From a virus (taxonomy: Duplodnaviria; Heunggongvirae; Uroviricota; Caudoviricetes): a stretch of 4,471 bases of DNA. The notes below the pieces were generated by a model. That model saw only the letters and a program-made list of their open reading frames with translations. It ran no database searches and was not told the DNA's origin. The translations under genes and the position numbers were made by a program. Each line of letters starts with the position of its first letter. The first letter of the stretch is position 1. Shown in pieces: positions 3,800 to 4,428 of the stretch. The stretch lies in IMG/VR virus record IMGVR_UViG_2703718812_000015; one strand, written 5' to 3'.

Positions 3800-3937
3800 T
3801 CACCGGCCACAGCAATACCACAATGCCGCAGACCAGCCCCCATCCGCCAGCACCGACATGATTCTGCTGGTGAAATCCACCATCACCACCAGAAACAGCA
3901 GGAGTGCAGCCACAGCCAGGCGCAGTTTTACCGTCAC
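3800..3937 (-). CDS. Possible small hydrophobic peptide (45 codons, GTG start), hypothetical
   Basis: GTG at 3937-3935 overlaps the TGA stop of the TerB-like frame (GTGA overlap), with GGAG 8 nt upstream. Translation (M/V)TVKLRLAVAALLLFLVVMVDFTSRIMSVLADGGWSAALWYCCGR, stop TGA at 3802-3800: basic N-terminus, one hydrophobic helix, Cys-Cys near the C-terminus. Not in the ORF track (below its length cut-off). Confidence 0.3.
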   Translation of the reverse strand: MTVKLRLAVAALLLFLVVMVDFTSRIMSVLADGGWSAALWYCCGR

Positions 3938-4428
3938 AGGTGATTCTCCAGACGAAGCCCCAGAACACCGGCAATCTCTTCCAGCACCTTGCGCTCTTCC
4001 GGCTCAATTTCGCCGTCTGCCTCCGCAATGGCCACCGCCACATCCAGCACATCTTCCGCTTCACGCGTATCGCGTTTCACATCCTCGATCTCACGTAACG
4101 CCGCACGACGACCAATTTTAAAGTTCGTATCCAGCTGACCGATAATGGTTGCGCTAATCGCATTAATTTCTGACGTAAACGCGGACAGCGCTGGCTGATT
4201 ACGCAGTACCTGTTCGATCTTCGCTTTCTAGGAAGCCTCACATTCACCATTTGCACAGGCCACCAGGTATGCGGCGTTAATCACCGCCTGTGCCAGATCG
4301 CGTTTCTCAAACTTTCCTTTTTCCGGTTAACGTGACACACCAATAACTCTTGTCGAAAAAGCCAGCAAGCTGAAAGACCGGTATTCACAACCACCAGCGC
4401 GTTTACTGTACTGGCGTGATTTCAGTCA
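3934..4428 (-). pseudogene. TerB-family (tellurite-resistance TerB-like domain) gene disrupted by in-frame stop codons
   Basis: A single minus-strand frame reads ...LKSRQYSKRAGGCEYRSFSLLAFSTRVIGVSR * PEKGKFEKRDLAQAVINAAYLVACANGECEAS * KAKIEQVLRNQPALSAFTSEINAISATIIGQLDTNFKIGRRAALREIEDVKRDTREAEDVLDVAVAIAEADGEIEPEERKVLEEIAGVLGLRLENHL *. Both halves show the TerB signature (A-x-A-[DN]-G-x5-E ... EIAG-x-LG). In-frame TGA (4428-4426), TAA (4329-4327) and TAG (4230-4228) interrupt it and no in-frame ATG exists; the only nearby ATG (4429-4427) is out of frame and hits a stop after 8 codons. Confidence 0.6.

Follow-up and report, generated by a model that had tools for sequence, protein, structure and literature searches.

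The three stop codons that stand at equal distances in the TerB-like reading frame of this DNA are most probably explained by a natural deletion fusion together with one amber mutation in the prophage gene tciA, with their spacing being coincidental (we put the probability of this reading at about 0.93). The window, by which we mean the whole 4,471-nt stretch analysed here, covers the beginning of the late operon in a lambdoid prophage of a Shiga-toxin-type Escherichia coli. Its minus strand carries, in order, the Q leader with its terminator, a tciA remnant, tciB, a small RNA (sRNA), a nanS-p-like esterase gene, DUF1378, DUF826 and a holin gene. Intact relatives are arranged as Q, leader, a 65-aa ORF, a DNA methyltransferase gene, three tRNA genes, tciA (143 aa) and tciB. 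The observation carries little biological weight, being an odd pattern explained in an accessory gene that RefSeq flags as a pseudogene, and the gene is to be regarded as an ordinary prophage pseudogene, already annotated as such.

Leader, deletion junction and tciA remnant

Translation of the minus strand of window positions 3934–4470 placed TGA (4428–4426), TAA (4329–4327) and TAG (4230–4228) in one frame that ends at TGA 3936–3934. Successive stops were 33 codons (99 nt) apart, TGA and TAA being positioned 198 and 99 nt from TAG, and no Met was present in the translation of this frame. An earlier sequence-only reading had described three stops at exact 99-nt steps without an in-frame ATG, and its coordinates, spacing and lack of Met were all correct. 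The same reading had taken the entire 495-nt stretch for a continuous and otherwise intact TerB-like frame interrupted by these stops. This part did not hold: the Pfam TerB match begins only after TAA, similarity to intact tciA begins only at window 4315–4311, and the DNA from 4471 to 4313, in which both TGA and TAA sit, is non-coding.

The latter segment (4471–4313, minus strand) is a Q-antiterminator leader that matches DNA downstream of Q in other prophages. The Q gene itself (822 nt) ends 63 nt beyond the window edge. In locus L127 (strain FDAARGOS_1281), directly downstream of the same 822-nt Q gene, the leader is 92% identical up to position 3075, and 88–94% identity was seen to unannotated Q-downstream DNA in many genomes, where the 65-aa ORF is found instead of tciA. 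In those loci the segment ends in GTTAACCGGAAAAGGGAAAAAGACATG, corresponding to the ribosome-binding site and ATG of the 65-aa ORF, downstream of which lie a DNA methyltransferase gene, 2–3 tRNA genes and then stx or tciA/tciB. Stx2a- and Stx2d-converting phages and phiP27 likewise carry Q-downstream DNA that is 83–99% identical to window 4471–4313, including a conserved intrinsic terminator; the window's leader, in contrast, joins the gene remnant directly, with no 65-aa ORF, methyltransferase, tRNAs, stx or intact tciA in between.

Terminator scans located the intrinsic terminator at 4453–4429 on the minus strand, with a 7-bp stem (4453–4436) followed by seven T (4435–4429) and a predicted fold of −12 kcal/mol (z = −2.25). 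The hairpin is retained, with different loops, in leader variants of other prophages. With its location directly downstream of Q and its intrinsic terminator, the segment has the layout of a lambdoid late-operon leader, and judging by its position after Q the terminator is probably of tR' type and read through by Q-modified RNA polymerase. Scanning the DNA between Q and the terminator (L001 4880–5250, L001 being the locus of the window's prophage) gave no consensus sigma-70 site at the scan threshold, so the pR'/tR' assignment is one by position; a candidate TTGATT-N16-TAAATT just after Q was seen by eye in the alignment only. The first stop, TGA (4428–4426), overlaps the last T of the terminator T-run, and the second, TAA (4329–4327), lies within the leader motif GTTAAC, 12–14 nt upstream of the deletion junction. 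The sequence GTTAACCGGAAAAGGGAAA around TAA also precedes the ATG of the 65-aa ORF in L005, L006 and L127. Both codons thus never belonged to TerB coding sequence and interrupt nothing.

We also considered whether the DNA upstream of the junction encodes a diverged TerB N-terminus in a different frame ('LAGFFDKS' resembling 'LGIFKKK'). This was rejected, as that DNA stands in front of the unrelated 65-aa ORF in many phages and blastn gave sharp boundaries.

The deletion was delimited by blastn of L001 against L127, which has the same Q type and an intact tciA. L001 2404–5159 aligned to L127 329–3075 and L001 5157–5682 to L127 5001–5528, leaving 1,925 bp (L127 3076–5000) missing from the window's prophage. 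The missing DNA comprises the 65-aa ORF, the DNA methyltransferase gene, tRNA-Ile(CAT)/Arg/Arg and the first 50 nt of tciA, so that phage tRNAs and a methyltransferase gene were lost here along with the start of tciA. At the junction (4315–4313, minus strand) the two segments share 3 nt, located in a short A/G-rich microhomology; the leader reads ...GGGAAAAAG and tciA ...TTAAAAAG. This comparison shows the leader to have been fused to codon 18/19 of tciA by a natural 1,925-bp deletion.

Downstream of the junction, the tciA remnant (4311–3934, minus strand) retains codons 19–143 and the stop, with no start codon, as supported by Pfam, alignment, PGAP and PHROG. A conceptual translation of 4326–3937 with TAG read as Glu scored 43.4 bits with Pfam TerB (PF05099), above the curated gathering cutoff of 24.4 (E = 4.7e-11, covering profile positions 2–109 of 118), and RefSeq annotates 4296–3934 as a pseudogene, "tellurite resistance TerB family protein", with an internal stop (PGAP C6P70_RS06800). 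Homologues in other prophages are uninterrupted (142–143 aa) and, by alignment, have GAG (Glu45) at the position of TAG (4230–4228, minus strand); intact TciA matched phrog_632 'tellurite resistance' end to end (231 bits). Both alignment and blastn showed the similarity of the window to intact tciA to start approximately 50 nt into the gene. With no ATG, the first 50 nt deleted and TAG at codon 45, no complete translatable TerB ORF is present at 4311–3934, and the copy is a gene remnant rather than a functional TerB member. The earlier statement that a full-length TerB protein cannot be made from this sequence is upheld by the same two lesions, the deleted start codon and the stop at codon 45. 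Among the three stops, TAG is the only true nonsense mutation.

The sequence-only reading had treated all three stops as replacing ancestral TerB codons; homologues confirm this for TAG, which was GAG, and not for TGA and TAA, which never were TerB codons. Its own opposing scenario, in which the upstream stops lie in non-coding sequence, is in substance what we found, in the form of a leader fused to codon 18/19.

Additional missense changes were present in the remnant. At 4251–4249 (minus strand) AAT (Asn) replaces GAT (Asp), and the first TerB motif consequently reads ANGE in the window allele as opposed to ADGE in all other alleles, while the second motif, EADGE, is kept. The two acidic A-D-G-E-type motifs of the TerB repeat halves are probably functionally essential. 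The Asn change is common to the exact-match genome described below and seven IMG/VR loci, and together with a His-to-Arg change it makes two private missense changes in the window allele. [quoted passage not shown]

Among known systems, Escherichia phage JLK-2012 carries tciA-tciB with 93% nucleotide identity over window 4315–3900 and annotates them as tciA 'tellurite resistance' and tciB. The lambdoid tciA/tciB cassette shares with the window its gene order, the overlap of the tciA stop with the tciB start and a site between Q/tRNAs and a nanS-p-like esterase; the window differs in having no ATG or first 17 codons, an amber at codon 45, the Asp-to-Asn change and a frameshifted tciB. The names tciA and tciB come from phage P1. 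Literature searches on lambdoid tciA/TerB yielded papers on P1-type phage-plasmids and a table entry, with no experimental paper on the lambdoid cassette among the results. A function in tellurite or colicin resistance, or in inhibition of cell division, would be one suggested for tciA-tciB by the annotation name. A role as a defence system was rejected: PADLOC models gave only a partial match of intact TciA to PDC-S48 (14.9 bits, E = 0.0025) and none for TciB.

Allele distribution and the amber codon

The tciB gene (DUF3927 by Pfam; 3937–3771, minus strand) follows the remnant, its GTG start overlapping the tciA stop (GTGA, 3937–3934). Alignment revealed a gap of one nucleotide in a G-run (3841–3837), as a result of which the ORF stops at 3800 and encodes 45 aa instead of 54–55 aa. 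RefSeq annotates this short product as a normal DUF3927 protein (WP_001435346.1; 3937–3800). An intact tciB homologue matched phrog_1470 'TciB-like' (86.5 bits), and the locus, a TerB-family gene (phrog_632) with an immediately adjoining, overlapping DUF3927 gene (phrog_1470) in a lambdoid late region, has the configuration of a tciA-tciB moron.

The sequence-only reading had also held that the locus does not display the usual irregular decay of pseudogenes. In fact a 5' deletion, one nonsense mutation, missense changes and a frameshift in neighbouring tciB are all present, an irregular mixture of the kind expected of pseudogenisation, which argues for natural decay.

Alleles were sampled from IMG/VR prophage contigs, using a codon-spanning pattern, and from E. 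coli loci, giving 123 pattern matches. TAG was combined with the junction in approximately 54 of these and with an intact 5' end in approximately 35, GAG occurred with an intact 5' end in approximately 31, and GAG with the junction was found in none of the 123. Since TAG occurs with intact 5' ends and GAG never with the junction, the distribution suggests that the amber mutation came first and that the deletion happened later on that background. In the sequence of events that we propose, a GAG-to-TAG amber would have arisen at codon 45 of tciA, after which a 1,925-bp deletion across the A/G-rich microhomology would have joined the leader to codon 18/19 with loss of the start codon. TGA and TAA of the leader simply happen to share phase with the remnant. 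Transcription may still reach the remnant when polymerase passes the terminator under the control of Q; as the remnant lacks a start codon, it would presumably go untranslated and yield no TerB protein.

One alternative is that an amber tciA is still functional. Under this explanation, a 48-aa TerB fragment would be made from GTG 4080, or TAG would be read through where the 5' end is kept, and the window copy would be a recently disabled derivative of a maintained amber allele. In its favour, around 80 TAG loci comprising some 17 protein variants show neither another frameshift nor another stop across the 125 codons that remain, although nucleotide diversity among the alleles is low and few secondary lesions would be expected anyway. 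A further point is the 48-aa GTG ORF of the ORF list (4080–3934, minus strand), which covers the C-terminal third of TciA downstream of TAG: phrog_3920 (48 aa, unknown function) matches residues 96–143 of intact TciA and therefore has exactly the extent of this ORF. However, phrog_3920 most simply, and probably, arose from gene calls on amber-allele pseudogene copies, and GTG 4080 is poorly served for initiation, the sole Shine-Dalgarno-like GAGG, as read from the sequence, being only 2 nt away; the ORF is probably not a real gene. Owing to the GTGA overlap of tciB with the tciA stop, expression of tciB could be influenced by ribosomes that arrive at that stop, yet the window allele has lost its start codon, has Asn in place of the motif Asp and carries a frameshift in tciB. 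Finally, a phage-encoded amber suppressor tRNA near the TAG alleles was rejected, given that ARAGORN found only the anticodons CAT, TCG, TCT and TTT beside them, and no tRNA genes were found within the window. On balance we regard residual function of the amber allele as unlikely. The fuller version, in which amber tciA on many allelic backgrounds is maintained through the 48-aa half-TerB or through readthrough that couples tciB, with the window copy a dead derivative, is judged a shade less likely again.

Spacing of the stop codons

The regular spacing itself was evaluated against chance. Across the six frames of the 4.5-kb window, 7 out of 303 consecutive in-frame stop triples were equally spaced, two of which use all three stop codons; the second such triple is found on the plus strand at 212–291 with 39-nt spacing. 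When the 241 nt upstream of TAG were shuffled 200,000 times, equal spacing was obtained in 2.6% of shuffles, equal spacing with three different stops in 0.56% and equal spacing of at least 20 codons in 0.3%. Equally spaced stop triples hence have a chance rate of 2.3–2.6%. Taken singly, the exact pattern (33 + 33 codons, three different stops) has a low probability, about 5e-5 for exactly 33 codons. It ceases to be remarkable only when the approximately 300 stop triples per window are taken into account, given which one equally spaced, all-different triple per window is roughly the chance expectation. Coincidence, one of the explanations offered by the sequence-only reading, is accepted here: the equal spacing is a product of extending a reading frame into fused non-coding leader DNA. 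The more general lesson is that a frame extended upstream of a truncated gene may enter non-coding DNA, where leader stops can mimic nonsense mutations.

A 99-nt DNA repeat was also considered as the source of the periodicity and rejected, as Tandem Repeats Finder and a repeat search found none in 3900–4471. Within the gene the only repeats have a distance of 228 nt, which corresponds to the two-half structure of the TerB domain.

In several junction alleles the frame upstream of the junction is altered, with one A fewer in L062, one T fewer in L108, a 4-nt gap plus one base fewer at the junction in L074 and compensating indels in L078. TAA is out of frame in L062 (−1 nt), L074 and L078, and the frame has no TGA in leader variants L044, L102, L062 and L074. 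Given these indels and TGA-less leaders, the (0, 99, 198) pattern is a property of one common allele and not a maintained feature.

The window region matches the E. coli 2011C-4251 chromosome (human isolate, USA) at 100% identity and is 98.4–98.8% identical to O157:H7, O145 and other STEC genomes. The fused arrangement was present in 474 complete E. coli genomes, whose sources include humans, cattle and food, and over 50 prophage contigs of IMG/VR also carried it; tciA as such occurs in roughly 2,200 E. coli genomes. This recurrence bears on the two remaining options of the sequence-only reading, sequencing error and engineering, neither of which survived. An error of sequencing or assembly that created one or more of the stops is very improbable: the A-run and G-run near the junction and in tciB are typical sites of homopolymer error, which is nothing specific, whereas each of the three stops is either a base substitution or native to the leader, does not stem from homopolymer length and recurs identically in hundreds of independent assemblies. 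Deliberate inactivation with stops designed at regular intervals, to which three different stops at exact 99-nt steps and the description of the matching strain 20R2R as a 'culture mutant' might seem to point, is the most far-fetched of all, considering that hundreds of natural isolates carry the arrangement and that TGA and TAA, both outside coding sequence, are part of a leader which is also conserved in phages where it was never joined to tciA. Moreover, TAG exists alone in copies with natural 5' ends, and natural indel variants break the spacing.

Prophage context

RefSeq places the SASA-family nanS-p-like esterase gene at 3456–1483 and a class II holin gene at 770–555, together with DUF1378, DUF826 and a YdfR fragment, and Pfam agreed with the RefSeq gene assignments in the window. 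In Stx phages the slot between Q/tRNAs and the esterase is occupied by stx (seen in L006). The Q-to-nanS-p slot of STEC prophages, filled by stx in Stx phages and by tciAB elsewhere, is a place where deletions occur and modules are exchanged.

The tRNA cluster that precedes stx/tciA is itself variable. Its middle tRNA is annotated as 'tRNA-OTHER' in ETEC1746 (L006 4196–4276), where ARAGORN calls none, has a Lys(TTT) anticodon in L008 (1913–1988) and is missing in L005 and L022.

At the opposite end of the region, L001 8922–10572 (window approximately 215–550 and beyond its low end) contains a truncated YdfR-family gene after the holin gene, followed by an IS3-family transposase. Disruption thus extends to the lysis module, as would fit a defective prophage.

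Several smaller features were recorded within the window. The sRNA STnc100 (RF02076) was detected at 3597–3763 on the minus strand, between tciB and the esterase gene, with 101.6 bits against a gathering threshold of 47 (E = 3.9e-22). The 657-aa SASA/DUF1737/DUF6645 esterase has, in its N-terminal linker, the repeated peptide DVTTPVVVPGTG, encoded by a perfect 36-nt tandem duplication (3228–3307, 2.2 copies). Lastly, window 846–1271 (minus strand) holds a 141-aa ORF starting from GTG, of which just the C-terminal 89 aa (270 nt) are annotated as DUF826 in RefSeq, while the Pfam DUF826 match spans residues 53–125 of the ORF.
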